Of a DNA stretch of 34,109 nucleotides, positions 2,453 through 29,069 are shown piece by piece; the stretch's first letter is position 1; every line of letters starts with the position of its first letter. Source of the stretch: a virus (lineage: Duplodnaviria; Heunggongvirae; Uroviricota; Caudoviricetes); the IMG/VR virus record IMGVR_UViG_2913167280_000005, positions 1 to 34,109 of that record; one strand, given 5' to 3'. The notes under the pieces were generated by a model. The model had not been told where the DNA came from and searched no databases. It saw only the letters and a program-made list of their open reading frames with translations. Position numbers and translations under genes: made by a program.

Positions 2453-5205
2453 TGCCCTACCGCCTTACCTAAATCCGGCGCACGTCTTGGCGCTGTATCA
2501 CCAGGCTCCCACCAACTGGTGGTGTTGAACTCCCGCTGGGCCCGGTCTCTCACCCTATCGTTGTAGCCAGGGTTTGCCATCTCCTGAAGCTGTTGCAGGA
2601 TCAGATGATTGGTCACCGCTTTAGCATACCAGAGGTTGGCGAACGGGGTGATCATGCGCGCCGTCTTCAGCGCATCGGCGCCGAATGACGTCTCTTCACC
2701 TTGTAGCGCCTTCTGTGGGTTGGTGATGAGGAGTTTAGTCAACTGTTCAGCGAAGCTCAGTACAGGGCCGCCCAGAGTGGCCGCAATACTGGAGCCGTAC
2801 TGCGTGTGGTCCTGGAACAGGAAATCGCCGTAGATGCCGAATGAACCACCTTTAAGCAGCGGCTGAATCCACGTCGTAGGCTTCGTCATATCAAGCGGGT
2901 CATTACCAGTAAGCAACGAGTTCATCTGGTTGGCAAACATGCCTGCCAGCGTTGTTCCAGCAATGTATGACGCAAGGAACTTGATACCGGGCACGCGGTC
3001 AAGATCTATTGTACGGTTAACCAACTGACGGAACCCGGCAAACGACGTGGTTTTGAATAGCATGAAGCTCTTCACCAGTTGTCCGGCATCATCACGGGCA
3101 TATGTATCCAGCCCGGTCGCCGTCGTGATGGCACTGGTCATTTCTCCGTGTGTGACACCCAGCAGTTTTTGAGCCGCTTCAGCACGGGCATTACGAACCA
3201 TGCGAGCAACAGTCTGTTCTGCCTCTGCATCGAACGCCTGTTTCATCCTGGTTCGACGTTCCTGTGGGATATCACCAAGAGCCGCCAAAGCGGTTTCACT
3301 CCCGGCCCTAACCTGCGCAATTCGATCAGCCATGATTGCGTGTATCGCTTCATCAGGTACGGCGTAAATCGCGTCCGGTGTCATTCCCATGTGGCCTGCT
3401 GTGGTCATTGGCCTGAGTTCTGCTGCCGCCATGATAGCCCAGTCCTCATTGCTCCAGCCTTTGCTGGCAAGAATGGTCTTGTCTGACCCCTTCACCTCAT
3501 CCAGCGTTTTAAAAGTGCGTGTCAGTTCGCCGATGTTCTTGTACATCAGCAGACCGAACGAAGCTTTGTTGGCGCGGTCCATTGCGATAAGACCGGACCA
3601 CTTCAGCGTCTTCTCAGCAAACCAGCCGGTGATGCCACGTGACAGGTCAAAGCCGCCCATCTTCGATACCACTGCGGCATGAGAATCCACCAGCAGGCCA
3701 AGCTCAGCATTAGCTCGCTTTGCGTCACCGCTGAACAGGTTTTTGATGGTGTTAGCAGAGAGACGCATACCGCCTCGCGAGAAGCCAAGAGCCTGAGCGT
3801 TGGCACGCATGATGGCCTGGTCACTGGTCGCCGTCAGAACGCTGGTACCGAGCATGGCGCTGGTCATCAGGTTACGCAGACCGCCGACGGCTGACGTGAA
3901 CACGCTTGATTCCTGCACGCCATTCAAACCGGCCATTGAGTTAAACATGCGCTCAACCATCGTTTTCTCGCTGTTCATCTTACCGACGTCTTTACCACCG
4001 GTGACTGCACGCTGATAAATCCTGTCGTTAATCAGCTTGAAGTTATTCGCCGCGTCTGGGCCAAAGGCCTTTACAGTGCCCAGGTCTCGAGACGATGACT
4101 GAAGGTGTGACATCATCACGCCGACAACCGGCTGTTCGGTGTAGCGTTCCATGTACGCGAAGTGCGACTGTGCATCCTTGAACGCCATCACCCTGCTCTG
4201 CGAACCACGATTTTTAATGCCACCTGTTCCCATGAATGCGCCGGGGTCCAACTTGTTCGCACCGTCTGTCGCCTTGGTTTCGTAAATGGCCTCCAGCGCC
4301 TGGCGGTACTCGATGTCATTCATCGGTGAGCCGTCGAGATTCACATACTGCGAGCGGTCTTGCGTGTTGTACACGTCGTCGACCCAGGCCTGTTTAGCAA
4401 ACTCAATCGGCGGCTGCCGTCCTGATAATCGAGCCTTGGCCTGCTCCGCTGCAGAAAGGCTGGCAAGCCATTCATCGCGGCCTGAATTACGGATAAGGTC
4501 AGCATCGTCGACATACGGCAGATTCCAGTTATCACGCTGCCCGATATCAAACCCGGCGTCGTTCATCTCCTGACGAGCCCGGCTGGTCACATCACCCCAG
4601 ACCTGAGCTATTTTCTTCGCCTGTGGGTTGCCCGTGTCTTCACCGTAAATCTCTTTGAGGATCTGCAACTGCCCGGACTTCGCCACGCGCTGATCGAACA
4701 GGCTGCGGAAGCGTTGCTCGCCGAGTGCCTTACTCTGCTCGAAAAACTTCTGCACTTCTGGCCCGGCCTTCAGTAGTTCGGCGCTTAGTTGGCGAGACCA
4801 GTCCTGATATGCGCCGGTGGCGAGTTCTTCCGCCGAGGTAACAGGAATATCAGTTCTGTCTGTTGTACGACGGCCGGAGAAAATAAGTTGCTGGAGGTTG
4901 GCTGGGGTTTGCTGCTCTGGCGGGATGGCGGCATCCAGCGTATCGGTGACTTTCGATATGGCAATCGCATTTTGCGCAAGGCGCTGGCGCTTCTTATACA
5001 CGTCATGCACCACGCGCTGGCGAACCAACTCGGCGGCATCCATATATGTCTGAGCGTCGGGGATACCAGTTTTGCCTTCTCGTGCATTGTTGCGGCTGAC
5101 CTGACGGACGGCTTCCTTGATGCGGTCCTCAATATTTTTCAACTCATCGGCCTTTGGCTTGCGCCCAAGCGTCTGCGCAATGGCTTCTACACATGCCTGT
5201 TTCAT
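2449..5205 (-). CDS. large internal virion/ejection protein (about 918 aa)
   Basis: Long ORF in the structural operon; ATG at 5205 overlaps the upstream stop (TAATG) with GAGGAA upstream (track start is a GTG at 5226). Function is from size and position in a T7-like gene order. Confidence 0.6.
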   Translation of the reverse strand: MKQACVEAIAQTLGRKPKADELKNIEDRIKEAVRQVSRNNAREGKTGIPDAQTYMDAAELVRQRVVHDVYKKRQRLAQNAIAISKVTDTLDAAIPPEQQTPANLQQLIFSGRRTTDRTDIPVTSAEELATGAYQDWSRQLSAELLKAGPEVQKFFEQSKALGEQRFRSLFDQRVAKSGQLQILKEIYGEDTGNPQAKKIAQVWGDVTSRARQEMNDAGFDIGQRDNWNLPYVDDADLIRNSGRDEWLASLSAAEQAKARLSGRQPPIEFAKQAWVDDVYNTQDRSQYVNLDGSPMNDIEYRQALEAIYETKATDGANKLDPGAFMGTGGIKNRGSQSRVMAFKDAQSHFAYMERYTEQPVVGVMMSHLQSSSRDLGTVKAFGPDAANNFKLINDRIYQRAVTGGKDVGKMNSEKTMVERMFNSMAGLNGVQESSVFTSAVGGLRNLMTSAMLGTSVLTATSDQAIMRANAQALGFSRGGMRLSANTIKNLFSGDAKRANAELGLLVDSHAAVVSKMGGFDLSRGITGWFAEKTLKWSGLIAMDRANKASFGLLMYKNIGELTRTFKTLDEVKGSDKTILASKGWSNEDWAIMAAAELRPMTTAGHMGMTPDAIYAVPDEAIHAIMADRIAQVRAGSETALAALGDIPQERRTRMKQAFDAEAEQTVARMVRNARAEAAQKLLGVTHGEMTSAITTATGLDTYARDDAGQLVKSFMLFKTTSFAGFRQLVNRTIDLDRVPGIKFLASYIAGTTLAGMFANQMNSLLTGNDPLDMTKPTTWIQPLLKGGSFGIYGDFLFQDHTQYGSSIAATLGGPVLSFAEQLTKLLITNPQKALQGEETSFGADALKTARMITPFANLWYAKAVTNHLILQQLQEMANPGYNDRVRDRAQREFNTTSWWEPGDTAPRRAPDLGKAVGQ

Positions 5206-17073: not shown

Positions 17074-17381
17074 AAATTGTCCTCACCGGCCTCTGCGGCC
17101 ATCTTCAGATACTGATCCGGGCAGTGCGCCATTACGCGCTGAAATAGCATCAGCGCCAGATTGCGCTGCCCTTCGTTGAATGCAGTCACATACGGGTCAT
17201 TGGTGAAGCAAGGGCCAAAAACACTTCCCTTTTCCAGCAGAGACCACAACACCCGACGGCCCTGTTCAGATCCCATGACGCGTTGAATGTCTTCAATGTC
17301 GCGCTTACGAAGAATCTCATTGGCCACTTCACGGGCTTTTCTTTCTTCGGCGTTCTCTTCATCAAGCAGATCGCTCACCAT
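17070..17381 (-). CDS. hypothetical head protein (about 103 aa)
   Basis: ATG at 17381 overlaps the portal stop (ATGA). Confidence 0.5.
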   Translation of the reverse strand: MVSDLLDEENAEERKAREVANEILRKRDIEDIQRVMGSEQGRRVLWSLLEKGSVFGPCFTNDPYVTAFNEGQRNLALMLFQRVMAHCPDQYLKMAAEAGEDNL

Positions 17382-19066
17382 CACTGACGAGCCCCCGCGC
17401 CAGTGGCGTTAGCCGCTGCGTTTGAAATGGCAGTCAACGCGCTAGGGTCCGACGTCTGCGTTTCGCTGAGAGTCTTGGCCCCCTGAGCCGCTGCCATCCC
17501 CATCTGCATCTGTTGCTGCATCTGAGCCTGTTCGGCGCGAGCTTTACGCAACTGCTCAACCTCTTCCTGCGAGGTGATAACGCTCGGCGATACGCCGGAC
17601 ATTTCCGCGAATGCGTCGATCGCTTCGTCGGCATTGAGCTTGTCGAGTGCTTCCGGTTTGACGGTCGCCAGCTGACCAATGAATGCAACGGTCTGAGAAA
17701 GGCTGGAAATTCCGATTGATTTCTGTGCCTGCGCCATCACCGAGATGTACTCGACTTTCAGCGGCATGCCCTGCATGACCTCAGGCGGTGGCGGCAGCAT
17801 GTTCTTGCGTGCCATGATGGAGAATGCGCGGTCGATAAGCGGGTTAAGGCACTCGTCATTGAGGCGCTCGAGCACCGGGCCAAGCATCAGGAGCTTCTCT
17901 TCCTTCATCTCGATCACCGCTTCAACAGGCATTGAGCGGGTATTGATGTTCTGCAACATCATGAAGAGGTCGACGAAGTAGGCGTTTTTGATGACCTGGC
18001 GTGTGTCCTGAATGTCAGCCAGCAGGTCGGCGGTGTTCGGGTTTACGAGGTAAGCAGGTTTGAATCCGTCCTGATTACCCACCTGGTCGATGTAGGTGAT
18101 GTCGCCAGGCAGCAGGGAGACGCGCTGATTCTTCAGTGACGACGGACCGATCATTGGTGGATTGGTGGCCTTGTCGATCAGCTGGCTCTTGCGTTTCTGC
18201 TCAAGCTGAAGCGCCTTCACCGGGCCCAGTGCAATCATGCCTGGGCAAGATGAGCCGTAAACGTCCTCGCCGTTAACTTCCCAGCGCGGAGCCATGATCG
18301 GGAATTCGTCGTAGCCGGACTCGCGCAGCAGCTTTTCGTTGTCGCCGCCAACCTCAAAGTAAACCGACTTGTACGGCTTGTTCTTGCTGTCCAGCTTGCC
18401 AGTGTCGCGGTCGGTGTTCGGGTATACGGAATGAATCACCTCGATCCACTTCTCGTATGTTCCGTTTTCCCACATGCTTTTAACGGAAGTGCTGACCTTA
18501 TCAAGGCCGAATTCCATCACCATCTGGCGAACGGTCATCGAGAACTTACGGAAGCAGGTATCGACGCTGCCGCGAGCAGAGTTCGACAGGTAGTAGCTGC
18601 CAATCGGGAACATCTGCGTACGGATGATATCGGTGTCGTCTTCCAGTACAGCCATTGCACCAGAGCTGTACGTTCCGAGTGAGGAATACAGCAGCGGCAA
18701 AGACTGATACAGGTTCGAGCGGTTGAACATTTCGTTCATGTATCGCTGAACGGTTTCGCACCACTGCTTAACCGGGCCGTAATCCATCATGTCGGGATCA
18801 GGTGTTGCCAGCTTGAACCACGGACGGGCCGGACTGGTGATGCCTGACATCATGCCACTGGAAAGCACGCGCTCTGCCAGGGTCGCGGTAGGGTCAATGA
18901 TTCTGGTATTGCGGCGATCACGGTTTACGTCAGTGACCAGGAAACGGGAACCACGCGGAATGATGTAATCACTCAGCTCTCGCCAGTGAGATTCGAACGA
19001 AGTACGCTCATTCTCCATTTGCGCAAGCTGCTTAATCAGTTGCTCTTTTACGGTTTCCGTCGCCAT
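17381..19066 (-). CDS. portal protein (561 aa)
   Basis: Size and position between the terminase genes and the scaffold/capsid genes; ATG at 19066. Confidence 0.8.
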   Translation of the reverse strand: MATETVKEQLIKQLAQMENERTSFESHWRELSDYIIPRGSRFLVTDVNRDRRNTRIIDPTATLAERVLSSGMMSGITSPARPWFKLATPDPDMMDYGPVKQWCETVQRYMNEMFNRSNLYQSLPLLYSSLGTYSSGAMAVLEDDTDIIRTQMFPIGSYYLSNSARGSVDTCFRKFSMTVRQMVMEFGLDKVSTSVKSMWENGTYEKWIEVIHSVYPNTDRDTGKLDSKNKPYKSVYFEVGGDNEKLLRESGYDEFPIMAPRWEVNGEDVYGSSCPGMIALGPVKALQLEQKRKSQLIDKATNPPMIGPSSLKNQRVSLLPGDITYIDQVGNQDGFKPAYLVNPNTADLLADIQDTRQVIKNAYFVDLFMMLQNINTRSMPVEAVIEMKEEKLLMLGPVLERLNDECLNPLIDRAFSIMARKNMLPPPPEVMQGMPLKVEYISVMAQAQKSIGISSLSQTVAFIGQLATVKPEALDKLNADEAIDAFAEMSGVSPSVITSQEEVEQLRKARAEQAQMQQQMQMGMAAAQGAKTLSETQTSDPSALTAISNAAANATGAGARQ

Positions 19067-19080
19067 TTCGCAGGACTCCG

Positions 19081-19287
19081 TTACTGTCCGAGCAGCGTTT
19101 TACCGCTGGTATTTGCGGTCGAGGTATCGCCTTGCGCACCGGTCAGCATCGTGGACTTCTGCCCGGCAGCAGCACGGCGTCGACGTTCTTCATCGTCACG
19201 CGCTGACACAACGGCCTGATCCTGTTCCTGTGGTGCGGCCTGAACTTCTGGTGCCGCTGGTACTGAAGGTGAGCCACCCATGCACAT
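19081..19287 (-). CDS. small hypothetical protein (68 aa) upstream of the portal gene
   Basis: ORF with GGAG about 9 nt upstream; Ala/Gln/Arg-rich. Confidence 0.45.
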   Translation of the reverse strand: MCMGGSPSVPAAPEVQAAPQEQDQAVVSARDDEERRRRAAAGQKSTMLTGAQGDTSTANTSGKTLLGQ

Positions 19288-19355
19288 AAACGTAACTCCG
19301 CACGCAATTAAATTATTACCAATTTAACCACATAAGGATTATTTTACGTAGTGCA

Positions 19356-19393
19356 TTGACATTTTATCGAGCAATTATTACCTTAAAGGTAAT
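19356..19393 (+). promoter_or_regulatory. candidate sigma70-type promoter (TTGACA, 17-bp spacer, TACCTT) overlapped by operator dyad ATTACCTTAAAGGTAAT (site A)
   Basis: TTGACA at 19356-19361; dyad at 19377-19393 overlapping the -10 position. Confidence 0.35.
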
Positions 19394-19399
19394 TAATCA

Positions 19400-20156
19400 T
19401 TGCATGATTGATTTGGTGAAGGATGTTGCTATGTGACATTCAACTCACCAGATGAGCCGAATAATTCAGGTTATCGGCTCACAACATGAGAGTGCATTCC
19501 TGACTATCCCCATACGGTAAGCCGTTAAATCCAAATGGTGGAGTGTGCTCTCAGTTGTGAATAACAACCGTTGTATGGCACATGCAGCGATAGCGGTCCG
19601 GCGGGTTCCTTGTAGGGTTCCCTTTCCTAGCCGGGTAGCCGGAATGTGCAAGCCTGGCTCGCTAACGGCCTTAGGGCGATTCACCATCGTGGCGATACGG
19701 TGTGACACCTCGGAAGAGACGAGGATGCAATGATGAGAGCATTGGTCATGGAGCGGTGGAGAATGAATCTGAGCTTCTTGGCGGTTGCAGCGGATTCTTA
19801 CATGAAAACCTGTGCTTTCTTCATTGTGGCAATGCGGCTGTGCGCACGTGACGAGGCATTTCATTCCACGCTTGAAATGAAAAGTTATCTAATAGTTTAA
19901 CGTCGTCAGCCGTAGCCGGGCTGACAGGTGGAGGCACCACCGCCACAAATCAAATCACGCCTCAGGACCGTTATACCCGTAGTACCTGTAACGATAGCTT
20001 TAACTTGGCGGTGTCAGAAACAACCATCCCGAAGTCGCTGGCACCGCCCTTTTTACACCAGAACGTCATTGCGATGGCTTTCCGTTGTAAACCCGTAATG
20101 CCAAGGAAGGCAGACTCCCATGCTTCCAGCTCGCCCACTTCGGTGGGCATTTTTTT
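19400..20156 (+). ncRNA. long untranslated leader / candidate structured RNA ending in an intrinsic terminator
   Basis: About 750 nt with no convincing ORF on either strand; stable hairpins at 19452-19480 and 19904-19924; a long GGCGGTG...CACCGCC hairpin plus CTTTTT at 20008-20055; canonical terminator at 20133-20156. Confidence 0.3.
20133..20156 (+). terminator. intrinsic terminator (GCCCAC-TTCG-GTGGGC plus 7 T) abutting the ribosome-binding site of the downstream ORF
   Basis: Perfect 6-bp GC stem with a 4-nt loop and U tract; AAGGTGA follows immediately, with the ATG at 20169. Confidence 0.7.
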
Positions 20157-20168
20157 AAGGTGAAAATT

Positions 20169-20540
20169 ATGAAAGAGATTGAAGAACTTAACCCGCCACG
20201 CGGCGAGATGACAGAATACCTAAAACAAGCTATCGGCGAAGGATATCAGCCTGAGCATGAAGATGCGGTATCTGACCTGTCAGTGATTGATGGTCTGAAT
20301 GATGGAGATCTGAATCGTGAGTTCGGTAAGTGCTGGCAGTGGTACAATATGGGCGGCGGACTCCATGAAACATTAGAGAATGGACTATCAAAATCAGATG
20401 CCGATTACCGCAGTGAACACTTATACAACATGAAATTACAATGCCTGCATGCGGCGATTATTCAGAATGGGCTATTCGATAAAACCAATGCCACCAATAT
20501 TGCGGAAGCAATCAACGCTGGATTCGATGCCATTAAGTAA
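20169..20540 (+). CDS. acidic hypothetical protein (123 aa), plus-strand accessory gene between terminase and portal
   Basis: ATG at 20169 with AAGGTGA 5 nt upstream (track start is a GTG at 20160); about 23 Asp/Glu against 11 Lys/Arg; no recognisable domain. Confidence 0.6.
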   Translation: MKEIEELNPPRGEMTEYLKQAIGEGYQPEHEDAVSDLSVIDGLNDGDLNREFGKCWQWYNMGGGLHETLENGLSKSDADYRSEHLYNMKLQCLHAAIIQNGLFDKTNATNIAEAINAGFDAIK

Positions 20541-20544
20541 CACC

Positions 20545-20556
20545 GTGACACGTCAC
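20545..20556. repeat. 12-bp palindrome GTGACACGTCAC, copy 2 of 3
   Basis: Begins 5 nt after the TAA stop of the 123-aa ORF. Confidence 0.45.
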
Positions 20557-20715
20557 AATCATCCTGCTCATCTGTATTGGTTTATGAACTCAACATTGTT
20601 ATTCTGAATAGCGCGGTAAATTCTCGGGCTAACGAGACGGGGAAAGAAGGTGGCTGTTGTCAACCTGCCACATGCTGGGTATCAGCACCAGCTACCGCGC
20701 ACTGATGATGTCATG

Positions 20716-20741
20716 AGCCAGCCGATGCGCTGGCTTTTTTT
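20716..20741 (+). terminator. intrinsic terminator (AGCCAGC-6 nt-GCTGGCT plus 6 T) closing the plus-strand cassette
   Basis: Stem-loop and U tract read directly; ends 6 nt before the convergent terminase large-subunit stop codon. Confidence 0.7.
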
Positions 20742-20746
20742 GTGCA

Positions 20747-22213
20747 TCATGCAAAGGGGTCATAATCTGTTATGGCTTTCCCTTGCTGCTGACCCGGCAG
20801 ATTCATCTTCTTCGCTACCGGAAACGCGAAGGTCAGCAGTAGCGCGTCACCGTCACCAGGCGAACGCCCGAGACGATCTTTAATGTCTTCTTTCGGCTCC
20901 ATCACAATCTTGCCATCCACCCTGACTTTGTACTCTGCCGCCGACAGGTCATCGGCAGTCTGCTGATTGTCAAGCATACCGCCGAGCTTCAGCCATGACT
21001 TGCAACTGTTGAACATCTCGCCGCGCTTGTTAAGCATTTGCGGATCTGTTGATGCGCCACCGAACGGAACAAGTTGCCATGAACGCCCCCAGCCATCACT
21101 GACAGATTTCAGCCCGGTTCCGTAGCCGAAGTCGATGAACACTGCGTCGGCCTTGTACTCGTCCTCGAAGTCGGCGATGCGCTTCGCCATAATCAGGTCG
21201 TCGGTTGTCTTCGAGCCAGACCAGAGCTTTTTGCTATGCAGCCCCTGGCGCAGGTATATCACCGCGTCATCAGCACCGGAGTATGCCGGATCAACGCCGA
21301 TAATCACCGGCGCATGAGCCACCTGCGCAGCGGTAACGACGCGCTTCATCGCAGCATCAGTGAGCCCGGTCGGGATAAACTGCAGCTCTGATGCATCAGG
21401 GAAGATCCCACGCACGCGAACCTTCACGAAGTCAGAATCCTCGCCGTAATCGTCAACCCACTTCTGCAACTGCTCTTTGTTCGTGCCCTCTACGGTGCGG
21501 GAATCAATCTGCGCCGTCTTCCACCGATGCTTGTATTTGCGGAAGCACTCGCGGAAACGTCCGGTGTTTCGCGTCGGGTTACCGAACGCCACCCAAATAA
21601 TCTCGGTGTCCTCGTCCGTCAGAGCGCCCTCGGCAACCTCCCACACCAGATCGGCAATGTTGGATGCTTCATCGAATACCACAATGATCCGCTTGCGCTC
21701 GTTGTGCAGCCCGGCGAATGCCTCGGTATTGTGCTCAGACCATGGGATAGCGTCAGCACGCCAGCGCTTATCATGCCCGGCATCGTTGCTGTACATCGCT
21801 GTGGCGGTGCAGGTGAACCACTCTTTTGTGATAGCCAGGTTCGACCATTTGATGATTTCCGGCCATGTCTTGGTGCGAAGCTGGTTATCGGTGTTGGCGG
21901 TCACCACCACCTTGCAGTCCTCGCAGGTGGACATGCCCCAGTTAATCAGCATCGAGATGAATGCCGATTTCCCGATGCCGTGTCCGGATGCGCGGGCAAT
22001 CATCAGCGGCTGGTAACGTGTTGCGGGATTCTGGAGGTGATCTCGTATCTCGCGGAATGCGTCTGCCTGCCACTTACGCGGCCCAGTAGCGTGTGACAGC
22101 TCGGTGCCATCCTCACCCCAAGGGAATGCATACAGTGCATAGCCAAGCGGGTCATGTGTAAACCCGGCAATGTCCTCGATGAGTTGCTCTTCTGGCGACG
22201 GTGATTCGGTCAT
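20747..22213 (-). CDS. terminase large subunit (488 aa)
   Basis: Walker A-like GHGIGKS; ATG at 22213 overlaps the small-subunit stop (ATGA); size typical. Confidence 0.9.
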   Translation of the reverse strand: MTESPSPEEQLIEDIAGFTHDPLGYALYAFPWGEDGTELSHATGPRKWQADAFREIRDHLQNPATRYQPLMIARASGHGIGKSAFISMLINWGMSTCEDCKVVVTANTDNQLRTKTWPEIIKWSNLAITKEWFTCTATAMYSNDAGHDKRWRADAIPWSEHNTEAFAGLHNERKRIIVVFDEASNIADLVWEVAEGALTDEDTEIIWVAFGNPTRNTGRFRECFRKYKHRWKTAQIDSRTVEGTNKEQLQKWVDDYGEDSDFVKVRVRGIFPDASELQFIPTGLTDAAMKRVVTAAQVAHAPVIIGVDPAYSGADDAVIYLRQGLHSKKLWSGSKTTDDLIMAKRIADFEDEYKADAVFIDFGYGTGLKSVSDGWGRSWQLVPFGGASTDPQMLNKRGEMFNSCKSWLKLGGMLDNQQTADDLSAAEYKVRVDGKIVMEPKEDIKDRLGRSPGDGDALLLTFAFPVAKKMNLPGQQQGKAITDYDPFA

Positions 22214-22800
22214 TTCTCACCAGCCTCTCTGATGCGGCGGCGCGCGGATGCCATGCGGTCTGCAATGGTGACGGTGCCGGAAACCTCGAGGCGTTCTTTG
22301 AACGCCATAACATCGACGTGCTTGCCGATGAGCTCCAGATTCTTCACCTTGTCGGGCCATTTTATCTTTTTGAGGATGCCGACCAGTTCTTTCTCATCGC
22401 CGCGCCCCTCAAACATGTCTGCCAACTCGAATCCGGTAAGATACTGGCGCCAGACCCTCGGCCACTCCGAAACCGGTTTAATACTCATGTCATCGTTCAG
22501 AATGTCGATCACATCCATCTGGTCGATTTCCACCAGGCGAAGCAGAACATAATCAGCGCTGACGCGGGTGCGCTTGTTGCGCTCCTCCATGAGTTCAGCA
22601 ATCCGTTTCTGGATTCGCTCATCGCGCATCATGACGCTGGCTTTGACCGCCGCCGTATTAGGAGAAAATCCTGCGTCTATCGCCGCCTGAGACTGATTTT
22701 CAGGGCTCTTGATGTATGACTGGCAGTAAGCCTCCTGCATCGCTGTAAGCGGCTTAAATTGCGTTGATTTGCGTTTGTGTGGTTTTGGTTCCGCTGGCAT
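22210..22800 (-). CDS. terminase small subunit (about 196 aa)
   Basis: Directly upstream of and coupled to the large subunit; ATG at 22800 with GGTGG upstream (track start is a TTG at 22812). Confidence 0.75.
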   Translation of the reverse strand: MPAEPKPHKRKSTQFKPLTAMQEAYCQSYIKSPENQSQAAIDAGFSPNTAAVKASVMMRDERIQKRIAELMEERNKRTRVSADYVLLRLVEIDQMDVIDILNDDMSIKPVSEWPRVWRQYLTGFELADMFEGRGDEKELVGILKKIKWPDKVKNLELIGKHVDVMAFKERLEVSGTVTIADRMASARRRIREAGEK

Positions 22801-22802
22801 TG

Positions 22803-22837
22803 TTACCACCAAAGTAATTAATTACCGTTGTGGTAAT
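22803..22837. promoter_or_regulatory. two adjacent operator-like dyads (GTTACCACCAAAGTAAT and ATTACCGTTGTGGTAAT; sites B0 and B) just upstream of the terminase small-subunit start
   Basis: Read directly; centres 19 bp apart; B0 is a 4/5 half-site match. Confidence 0.4.
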
Positions 22838-25765: not shown

Positions 25766-25831
25766 CGCCTTACCTCTTGGGTAATTAAAATCCACTTACG
25801 GATTAATATCAATAGTTATGCGCATTTATTT

Positions 25832-25846
25832 TTACCTGACAGGTAA
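25832..25846. promoter_or_regulatory. operator-like dyad TTACCTGACAGGTAA (site C)
   Basis: Perfect 15-bp palindrome in the intergenic region upstream of the nuclease-like gene. Confidence 0.4.
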
Positions 25847-28260: not shown

Positions 28261-28292
28261 TTACCTGTACGGTGCATTTACCTGTGGGGTAA
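28261..28292. promoter_or_regulatory. rightward operator region: two dyads (TTACCTGTACGGTGC and TTACCTGTGGGGTAA) between the Cro-like and repressor genes
   Basis: Read directly; centres 17 bp apart in the 153-bp divergent intergenic region. Confidence 0.5.
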
Positions 28293-28346: not shown

Positions 28347-28934
28347 ATGAAAAGTATCCACGATATTCGCCGCAAGAACCTCATCGATTTAATCGAACGC
28401 GATTTTAACGGTGTGCAAACGCGCCTGGCGGAGCGCCTGGATACTCAGCCTAATCTGGTAAACCGCTGGGCTCGTGGCACTAAAATCATCGGCGACCAGT
28501 CTGCACGTAAAATTGATATGGCAGCCAACAAGCCGACAAACTGGCTCGACACAGATCATGAACTTGTTTCTGTATCGGAATTCCAGCCGGTTGGCCCGAG
28601 TGATATCGGATTGCTGGCAGCTGAGAACCTGGCGCGCTGGATGCGTGAAAGTCGCGACCTGTCTACCCAGGGTAAGCTATCACGGGCATCAGGTGTGGCG
28701 CAGTCAACGCTGAACAGAATGCTCAACAATGAAGCCAGCATCACCCTTGCCACCCTGGAAGCCATCGCTGCCCCGTTCGGTCGCCGCGGTTATGAGTTGC
28801 TCATCCATCCGAAAGACCCCGCAGGAATCAGATACGACAGAACGAAGTACGCATCGTTACCTGAAAGCGAGAAAAGTAAGATTGAAAGTTTCATTGATTT
28901 TGTGATTACTCAGCACGCAAACAACCAGCTATAA
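28347..28934 (+). CDS. prophage repressor with two HTH (XRE-type) motifs, no S24 peptidase domain
   Basis: GVQTRLAERLDTQPNLVNRWARG and LSRASGVAQSTLNRMLNNE look like HTH segments; divergent from the Cro-like gene and followed by a strong terminator. Confidence 0.7.
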   Translation: MKSIHDIRRKNLIDLIERDFNGVQTRLAERLDTQPNLVNRWARGTKIIGDQSARKIDMAANKPTNWLDTDHELVSVSEFQPVGPSDIGLLAAENLARWMRESRDLSTQGKLSRASGVAQSTLNRMLNNEASITLATLEAIAAPFGRRGYELLIHPKDPAGIRYDRTKYASLPESEKSKIESFIDFVITQHANNQL

Positions 28935-28991: not shown

Positions 28992-29069
28992 TTACCCAAT
29001 GGGTAATTTTTTATCATCATATCTATTGACATCAACCCACATACGGATAATTATTACCTCAACGGTAAC
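28992..29069 (+). promoter_or_regulatory. leftward-operon promoter/operator: dyad ATTACCCAATGGGTAAT, -35 TTGACA (29026-29031), dyad ATTACCTCAACGGTAAC (29053-29069)
   Basis: Two dyads flank a consensus -35 hexamer; the second covers the -10/+1 region; the first ORF of the plus-strand operon follows at 29088. Confidence 0.5.

Follow-up and report, generated by a model that had tools for sequence, protein, structure and literature searches.

An unannotated structured RNA in the early leader of an epsilon15-like prophage

Only one RNA-only processive anti-terminator, the put RNA of phage HK022, is well characterised in phages, where the putL and putR RNAs act in cis to make RNA polymerase terminator-resistant, an effect exerted over at least 10 kb and without tethering (PMC9378689). 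In phage lambda, the corresponding place at the 5' end of the PL transcript is occupied by nutL and N, the loop of the nutL boxB hairpin being GAAGA, yet how the many lambda-like phages without an N gene read through their early terminators has no general answer. Two further described systems are of relevance here, namely phage morons, which are accessory cassettes with their own promoter and terminator inside the late region, and stable RNAs of unknown function in phage tRNA clusters, for example T4 RNA C and D.

In the current study, a 34,109-nucleotide stretch of viral DNA (IMG/VR record IMGVR_UViG_2913167280_000005, positions 1 to 34,109; hereafter the window) was analysed, in which an epsilon15-like prophage carries a plus-strand unit between the portal and terminase genes. 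The original prediction described this unit as a terminator-gated accessory cassette with a structured leader lacking a credible ORF, and all of the parts it described are indeed present. The unit comprises the following features, all on the plus strand:

19356..19392 (+), early promoter (-35 TTGACA at 19356-19361; -10 TACCTT at 19379-19384; 17-nt spacer) overlapped by the repressor operator dyad TTACCTTAAAGGTAA (19378-19392)
19479..19561 (+), long hairpin H1 (CACAAC-AUGAGAGUGCAUUCC ... GGAGUGUGCUCUCA-GUUGUG), the epsilon15 counterpart of which is annotated as an RNase III site
19566..19730 (+), module A, a roughly 165-nt pseudoknotted structured RNA comprising hairpin P1, P2, the invariant GGUAGCCGGAAUGUGCAAG, variable P3, hairpin P4 whose loop CACC pairs with downstream GGUG, and hairpin P5 with loop GAAGAGA
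19731..19826 (+), hairpin H2 (GCAAUGAUGAGAGCA ... UGCUUUCUUCAUUG) enclosing an insert, predicted only
19806..19955 (+), module B, a conserved leader segment ending in GGUGGAGGCACCACCGCCACAA
19955..20054 (+), module C with terminator t1, with stem GGCGGUGUCAG (20007-20017) / CUGGCACCGCC (20038-20048), a large loop and U5 at 20050-20054
20129..20156 (+), intrinsic terminator t2 (GCUCGCCCACUUCGGUGGGC + U7; stem at 20129-20148, T7 at 20150-20156), abutting the ribosome-binding site of the ORF
20157..20540 (+), ribosome-binding site AAGGTGA and an acidic 123-aa ORF (ATG at 20169, stop at 20538-20540), PHROG 4846, function unknown
20715..20741 (+), terminator t3 (stem at 20715-20736 plus a T run), closing the unit 6 nt before the convergent terL stop (20747)

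Minor corrections to the original prediction concern the positions of ACCACCGCC, which lies at 19936-19944 and not at 19941-19949, and of GGCGGTG, which lies at 20007-20013, while the reported palindrome (20545-20556) is GTGAC-AC-GTCAC, a 5-bp inverted repeat with a 2-nt spacer, of which we estimate that about 30 are expected by chance in 34 kb.

The promoter was missed by a generic promoter scan because its -10 is weak; however, the same TTGACA-N17-TACCYT plus TTACC-N5-GGTAA design recurs, with a variable spacer sequence, in 32 of 46 related uetakevirus loci. The record of epsilon15 annotates a repressor-binding site at the homologous place. The dyad occurs eight times perfectly in the window, against 0.43 expected for matches with up to one mismatch, and these sites include the PR/PRM region, PL and a position upstream of terS. 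The operator belongs to the site set of the phage repressor, which implies silencing in the lysogen and argues against an immunity factor expressed by the prophage.

The leader of 770 nt contains no plus-strand ORF longer than 62 aa in 19400-20160, and folds far better than shuffled sequences (z = -4.8). That the leader might be a decayed coding gene had been put forward at the outset as the finding that would overturn the prediction, and this reading was not borne out, the leader being a chain of conserved RNA modules. No leader ORF, including a 132-aa minus-strand ORF, has a Pfam match; two leader ORFs give only weak matches to small PHROGs of unknown function, which are probably built from mis-called ORFs over the same DNA; variation shows no three-base periodicity (31, 28 and 24 variable columns per frame); and compensatory changes maintain helices. 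Short ORFs overlapping the RNA are annotated as hypothetical proteins in some GenBank records (mEp390_036, Tyrion gp54 and Eeyore CDS0023-25). An invariant core combined with variable peripheral stems is also typical of ribozymes, although no known ribozyme family matches, and we consider it very unlikely that the leader is a decayed gene or that module A is a self-cleaving or processing element without a regulatory role.

The search against RNA family models that had been named as a check on the leader returned no Rfam 15 match, there being no hit in the whole window at gathering score and only chance-level hits in 19250-20800 at E <= 10, the best scoring 18.7 bits against a threshold of 64. 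ARAGORN found no tRNA or tmRNA in the window. A covariance model built for module A (R1) scores 152.5 bits at this locus (E = 2e-43). In 74 distinct homologues, 95% of cells pair, against 25-46% in slid controls, and 14 of 25 pairs show compensatory change, while G-U pairs fix the strand as plus. P3 was not resolved, and several contacts (the P1 loop GCAC with GUGC, and the P2 loop UCCUUG with CAAG or GGAAU) involve invariant bases, for which covariation offers no test. A BLAST match to module A occurs in 726 of 5426 complete E. coli genomes, or about one in eight, including Stx2a prophages, and no feature was annotated under any of the 40 matches listed. A 19-nt invariant stretch and several other invariant single-stranded positions persist across phages of Escherichia, Salmonella, Klebsiella, Enterobacter, Citrobacter and Kosakonia, which suggests a conserved host target. 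A literature search covering put-like RNAs, N-less Stx phages, prophage sRNAs (AgvB, Pas) and structured-RNA surveys, which did not extend to subscription-only papers, found no description of this RNA. The presence of this RNA family in the leader was not recognised in the original prediction.

Concerning the modules that flank module A, the support is more varied. H1 is present in the MFE fold and has a consensus of 14 pairs in 9 homologues, with only 2 compensatory pairs, and similar CACAAC...GUUGUG hairpins are seen by eye in the lambdoid PL leaders. The pairing of H2 was read from the sequence; its 5' half, GCAAC-GAUGAGAGCAUU, is conserved directly after module A in most homologues, and a complete equivalent occurs in phiNP. 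Module B gives blastn matches to the PL-side leaders of phages Eeyore, LLS, Flotzy and ZX1, and a similar segment follows module A in the P1-like phage D6. A t1-like module occurs in 100 of 123 loci, a median of 207 nt after module A, its upper stem differing between variants while pairing is kept, as read from the folds and not formally counted; t1 is also present in phiNP without module A. The t2 segment is 82-87% conserved in epsilon15, SPN1S and PAT1, and is annotated as a rho-independent terminator in epsilon15.

Of 127 loci, 70 carry module A directly after a cI-type or HTH repressor gene on the same strand, starting about 150 nt after its stop, in the PL leader, and 48 carry it in the uetakevirus slot described here. 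In mEp390 a terminator and a TTGACA promoter lie between the repressor gene and the RNA, and a promoter is also visible in BUCT708. In uetakeviruses the RNA follows, a median of 91 nt downstream, a promoter built like the phage's own PL. The first downstream genes are ordinary PL-operon genes. Using our terminator finder, a hairpin plus U-tract was found downstream in 114 of 119 distinct loci, while the specific t1 module lies at a variable distance of 136-823 nt, sometimes with a tRNA gene in between.

The original prediction proposed that ACCACCGCC may pair with GGCGGTG so as to form a transcription-attenuation leader. These segments can pair, terminators do lie between promoter and ORF, and the invariant junction nucleotides of module A resemble those of ligand-binding aptamers. 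However, the competing pairing is not conserved, as the upstream partner is found only in the window and one other locus (2 of about 42 distinct t1 variants), the long and variable spacing between module A and t1, with inserted modules and tRNA genes, does not fit a local switch, and no riboswitch family matches. We therefore regard an attenuator or riboswitch as improbable.

The cargo is the variable part of the unit. Across 37 distinct versions of this slot the promoter and leader stay while the cargo differs, comprising at least ten unrelated ORF families, with or without tRNA-Arg, and three versions have no ORF. In this prophage the ORF product has a pI of 4.54, with 22 acidic against 10 basic residues. 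The profile search and structure prediction that had been called for yielded a match to PHROG 4846 (E = 1.3e-18 over residues 74-123), no Pfam match, and an AlphaFold model that is all-helical (pLDDT 77.6, pTM 0.47) with no Foldseek match in the PDB with E below 0.9. As for conservation of the ORF, the absence of which would have counted against the prediction, 117 homologues were found, all hypothetical proteins of Enterobacterales. The proposed DNA-mimic or anti-defence role, which was not tested, is neither supported nor excluded by these data. Tandem Repeats Finder found no arrays in 19300-20800 at a minimum score of 30, and the tandem direct repeats of about 36 nt that characterise ToxI-like type III toxin-antitoxin loci are accordingly not in evidence. 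Overall, the interpretation given in the original prediction is partly supported: the unit is self-contained, with an operator-controlled promoter, an ORF-free structured leader, terminators in front of and behind a small acidic ORF and an accessory, moron-like nature, whereas the attenuation model fails.

Based on these findings, we tentatively propose that this is an immediate-early, repressor-controlled transcription unit in the variable terL-gp3 slot, in which module A is a put-like RNA that folds as it is made, stays associated with the RNA polymerase that made it and renders that polymerase resistant to t1 and t2, so that only transcripts started at the operator-controlled promoter would reach the cargo, with t3 ending the unit before terL. 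The promoter and operator, the RNA structure and its covariation, the genomic contexts, the conserved terminators and the variable cargo are shown by this analysis, while anti-termination itself and RNA polymerase as the target are inferred, there being no experimental evidence of any kind. In favour of this proposal are (i) the position of the RNA; (ii) the lack of a detectable N gene; (iii) the presence of terminators before the first gene at variable distance, which fits a distance-independent, polymerase-borne mechanism; (iv) the strong conservation of the RNA; (v) the constancy of the leader in front of variable cargo; and (vi) a single deletion in epsilon15 that removes both the 3' two-thirds of module A and the 5' arm of t1. 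Against it, in addition to the differences from HK022 put outlined below, phiNP and Eeyore have t1 or other modules in their PL leaders but no module A, which therefore cannot be the only way past t1. In this prophage, read-through would send antisense transcription into terL unless t3 resists, and three terminators in series look designed to stop transcription. Three slot versions have no ORF behind the RNA, and in D6 the RNA sits 12 nt after a tRNA gene, with no obvious terminator seen before the next gene.

The main rival, which we consider somewhat less likely still, is that module A, possibly with its neighbouring modules, is itself the product, being a stable early non-coding RNA that is cut out at the long flanking hairpins, ended by t1/t2 and active in trans on a conserved host component or defence system, with the ORF expressed only by terminator leak. 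The close succession of terminators after the RNA in nearly all loci, the three terminators that protect terL here, the cassettes without an ORF, the RNase III annotation of H1 in epsilon15, the invariant core, which suggests a conserved binding partner, and the sharing of the transcript with tRNA genes (tRNA-Arg about 70 nt downstream in many uetakeviruses and tRNA-Met 12 nt upstream in D6) would be in agreement with this view. Conversely, in lambdoid phages the whole PL operon lies behind the RNA and its terminator and must still be expressed, the variable distance to t1, with other modules in between, leaves no fixed 3' end, and no target or binding partner is identifiable from sequence.

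A nut-like site, in which P5 would act like boxB and recruit a phage or host protein that, with Nus factors, modifies RNA polymerase, appears unlikely. The position is that of nutL, the 5-bp P5 stem covaries while its purine-rich loop is conserved, and the BUCT708 and mEp390 leaders carry further small hairpins of the form CCGG-GAAAGA-CCGG; as no boxA-like element conserved across members was seen in the alignments, these observations leave the presence of a boxB/boxA pair undecided. In contrast, blastp with lambda N and the P22 gp24 arginine-rich motif gave no hit with E below 1, and no recurrent arginine-rich ORF was found within 3 kb downstream.

Should the put-like proposal be correct, module A may represent a second, structurally unrelated class of RNA-only processive anti-terminator that replaces N/nut in a large share of enterobacterial temperate phages, including Stx2a phages, mEp390-like phages and P1-like phage-plasmids, and that epsilon15-like phages have co-opted as a portable leader driving variable accessory genes through terminators; this broader reading is not excluded, but is regarded as doubtful. 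The covariance model, the fixed genomic position and the partner terminator defined here make the question directly testable with simple transcription assays. Even if anti-termination is wrong, this is a widespread, highly conserved, immediate-early phage RNA that databases miss and that annotators currently cover with spurious small ORFs.

Compared with HK022 put, module A shares the promoter-proximal position in the early leftward transcript just after the repressor-controlled PL, the absence of an N gene and the terminators downstream, and mEp390, a Hendrixvirinae relative of HK022, has module A in the putL slot. It differs in that it is about 165 nt with five helices and a pseudoknot, while put is about 70 nt with two stem-loops. 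No BLAST similarity was found between the leader and the HK022 early region beyond a chance 14-nt identity inside the nun coding sequence, and model R1 finds nothing in HK022 with filters off. Protein-independent suppression of termination, dependent on the beta-prime zinc-binding domain, was not assayed for module A. Exactly one model hit per locus was obtained in 100 sources, with no copy downstream of PR, although three of the loci (L004, L009 and L010) include cro and 1-2 kb beyond it. Lambda nutL/boxB occupies the same genomic slot, and P5 has a short GC stem and a purine-rich loop starting GAAGA, but module A is much larger, with an invariant multi-helix core. As in phage morons, the unit has its own promoter and terminator, is opposite in orientation to the late operon and carries cargo that varies between close relatives at a fixed slot; its promoter, however, carries the operator of the repressor and should be off in the lysogen, and the constant part is the long conserved structured leader, not the cargo. 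As regards stable RNAs such as T4 RNA C and D, to which no sequence relation was tested, module A is co-located and co-oriented with tRNA genes in D6 and in many uetakeviruses, while most copies lie in PL leaders without tRNA genes.

The region under study lies in an epsilon15-like (Uetakevirus) prophage, the nearest relatives of the region being Enterobacter phage Tyrion, Salmonella phages PAT1, SPN1S and epsilon15, and E. coli phage phiV10. The head genes, like the first four genes listed here, all lie on the minus strand, and the repressor gene is followed by a terminator, a PL-type promoter and a leftward-type operon encoding RecT, a PDDEXK-like domain protein (DUF3799) and a methylase.

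17381-19066, minus strand, portal
19081-19287, minus strand, small gp3-like gene
20747-22213, minus strand, terL
22210-22812, minus strand, terS
28347-28934, plus strand, HTH repressor gene

The original prediction described an accessory cassette between the portal and terminase genes, with a promoter and operator dyad, an ORF-free leader rich in hairpins, and terminators around a small acidic ORF, and this observation was upheld, as every element it listed was found to be present (module A, also given here, was defined in this analysis):

19356-19361, TTGACA, followed after 17 nt by TACCTT
19379-19384, TACCTT
19378-19392, the dyad TTACCTTAAAGGTAA, overlapping TACCTT
19566-19730, plus strand, module A, the best-conserved segment of the leader
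20007-20054, terminator t1
20129-20156, terminator t2, running into AAGGTGA and the ATG of the ORF
20169-20540, ORF of 123 aa with a pI of 4.54
20715-20741, terminator t3

Terminators t2 and t3 are textbook examples. Small corrections to the original positions concern ACCACCGCC, which lies at 19936-44, and GGCGGTG, which lies at 20007-13, while the feature at 20545-56, described as a palindrome, is an imperfect 5+5 inverted repeat of a kind expected by chance.

A consensus promoter scan missed the cassette promoter, although comparison supports it, since 32 of 46 uetakevirus loci keep TTGACA-N17-TACCYT and TTACC-N5-GGTAA while the spacer sequence varies, and the epsilon15 record annotates a repressor-binding site at the homologous place. 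The TTACC-N5-GGTAA dyad occurs eight times perfectly in the window, against 0.43 expected even when one mismatch is allowed. Apart from the cassette promoter, the sites, many of them at promoter-like places, are 1867-1881, 22822-22836 (directly upstream of terS), 25770-25784, 25832-25846, 28278-28292 (the PR/PRM region), and 28992-29006 and 29054-29068 (PL). The cassette promoter is therefore one of the repressor’s targets and resembles PL; it should be silent in the lysogen and fire on induction or infection. The site upstream of terS lies behind a terminator (GGCCGCCGACUAUGGCGGCUUUGUUUU), which suggests that the late operon has its own repressor-controlled promoter.

Decay of a coding gene had been named in advance as an outcome that would overturn the original prediction, and the leader is not a dead gene. 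No leader ORF has a Pfam match, and although two ORFs hit tiny PHROGs of unknown function, these are probably built from mis-called ORFs on the same DNA. GenBank records annotate small hypothetical proteins over the conserved RNA modules, namely mEp390_036 (2566-2808 of the mEp390 locus), Tyrion gp54 (3394-3555 of the Tyrion locus) and Eeyore CDS0023-25 (1716-2077 of the Eeyore locus), and PHROGs 6855 and 4647 may be built from such calls. Variation among homologues has no three-base periodicity, the 766-nt leader folds much better than shuffled sequences (z = -4.8), and blastn shows that it is modular, with each segment conserved in different sets of phages. Module B (a conserved leader segment), module C (which carries t1) and the CACAAC...GUUGUG hairpins occur in the long non-coding PL leaders of lambdoid phages that lack module A (Eeyore locus, 2001-2145; phiNP locus, 1275-2268), and the modules therefore assort independently. 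Sequences resembling tRNA T-arms (GGTTCAATTCC, GGTCCGTTCGATTCGGAC) sit inside the long leader hairpins of Stx2a_1447 (about 2625-2720 of its locus) and phiNP (about 1780-1850), where ARAGORN calls no tRNA.

An exact search of IMG/VR for the invariant 19-mer of module A, GGTAGCCGGAATGTGCAAG, returned at least 119 loci, and these gave 94 distinct cores, the alignment of which shows an invariant core with variable peripheral stems. We proposed five helices, comprising P1, a hairpin with loop GGCAC; the base of P2; P4, a hairpin with loop UCACC; a pseudoknot between that loop (CACC) and GGUG downstream; and P5, a hairpin with loop GAAGAGA. On 33 sequences, 93.8% of cells pair, against 24-47% when partners are slid, while on 74 distinct sequences aligned by the covariance model 95.2% pair, against 25-46%, with 14 of 25 pairs carrying compensatory changes in 179 cells and no shuffle reaching any observed measure. 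The pseudoknot is supported by CACC/GGUG changing to AACC/GGUU in 11 sequences, and frequent G-U pairs fix the functional strand as the plus strand of the window. The covariance model of module A (R1) scores the window copy at 152.5 bits and finds exactly one copy in each of 100 sources. The comparison with RNA family models that had been set as a check was made against Rfam 15, and gave no match.

A BLAST match to module A occurs in 726 of 5426 complete E. coli genomes, in 432 of which it covers at least 80% of the query, and of 787 places 221 are on plasmids. Among one genome per species of bacteria and archaea, the exact 19-mer occurs in 24 contigs, all from Enterobacterales with the exception of two short metagenome-assembled contigs (L137 and L150; 1.7 and 3.1 kb) labelled Bacillota and Lachnospiraceae, which are probably mis-binned phage fragments. 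No description of this RNA was found in Rfam, in the searchable literature (subscription papers were not covered, so that prior description is not fully excluded) or in the RefSeq annotation of the E. coli matches, where no feature was annotated under any of the 40 matches listed.

Of 127 loci, 61 have a cI-type repressor gene (HTH plus S24 peptidase) on the same strand, ending about 150 nt before the RNA, and nine have an HTH-only repressor in that position. This placement is seen in the annotated phages mEp390, Stx2a_1447 and BUCT708, which have 600-800 nt of non-coding DNA before the first PL-operon gene. A further 48 loci are in the uetakevirus portal-terL slot, while the other nine are either truncated or are P1-like phages such as D6. 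In D6 (643-2598 of its locus), ARAGORN places four tRNA genes on the same strand as module A, with tRNA-Met(CAU) ending 12 nt before it, whereas the feature table shows the three annotated tRNAs on the opposite strand and tRNA-Met is not annotated at all.

A simple terminator finder detected a hairpin plus U-tract downstream on the same strand in 114 of 119 distinct loci, although no matched control region was scanned. It usually lies before the first gene, and apparent exceptions were over-extended ORF calls or the weak-U-tract mEp390 type. A specific module, here t1, is present in 100 of 123 loci, a median of 207 nt (136-823) after module A, and reads GGCGGU-variable stem-large loop-ACCGCC-C-U(4-5)-ACA. 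Its upper stem differs between variants while pairing is kept (GGCAG/CUGAC, ACCAG/CUGGU, CGGCAG/GUCGA, GAUGG/CUAUC), as read from the folds and not formally counted. The loop is unusually large (11-20 nt; 20018-20037 in the window) and, in the window and other loci, often contains UCCCUU or UCCUU, resembling the UUCCUUG motif in the P2 loop of module A; a shared partner or a loop contact is possible, though untested. The original prediction had read the leader as a transcription attenuator in which ACCACCGCC could pair with GGCGGTG, yet this anti-terminator partner is found upstream of t1 only in the window and one other locus, and the attenuation model is therefore not supported. The interpretation first offered was thus borne out only in part.

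Across 37 distinct versions of the uetakevirus slot, the promoter and module A are constant, while the cargo comprises at least ten unrelated ORF families, a tRNA-Arg about 70 nt after the RNA in 18 versions, and no ORF in three. The profile search and structure prediction envisaged for the 123-aa protein placed it in PHROG 4846 (unknown function), with 117 hypothetical homologues in Enterobacterales, and gave a moderately confident, all-helical model that matches nothing solved. The protein looks like two independently shuffled modules, residues 1-65 being conserved in one set of homologues and residues 74-123 in another set of 139-215-aa proteins, with a low-confidence linker at 67-74; both parts are combined with other domains elsewhere. 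Epsilon15 itself carries a deletion (3299-3373 of its locus) that fuses P2 of module A to the 3' arm of t1, leaving only a 39-bit remnant of the RNA, while t2 and the ORF are intact.

The features observed to be constant are a repressor-controlled early promoter, a promoter-proximal, highly conserved and complex RNA, intrinsic terminators at variable distance, genes behind them, and the absence of N. From these we infer, tentatively, a put-like, polymerase-borne anti-terminator, which is the explanation we favour. Against it, the PL leaders of phiNP and Eeyore have t1 or other modules but lack module A, and in this prophage read-through would run antisense into terL. The main rival, somewhat less favoured and itself doubtful, is a stable early RNA acting in trans, which is favoured by the tRNA neighbours, the ORF-less cassettes and the three terminators in series; the nut-like, attenuator, ribozyme and dead-gene readings rank lower. 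There is no experimental evidence of any kind to decide among these readings.

With regard to known systems, there is no similarity between module A and put, and module A is present as a single copy only, both of which speak against the put-like explanation. No lambda N or P22 gp24 homologue and no recurrent arginine-rich ORF was found within 3 kb downstream of the RNA. In mEp390 the order is cI stop, terminator, TTGACA promoter and then the RNA, which is the slot of nutL/N in lambda and of putL in HK022.
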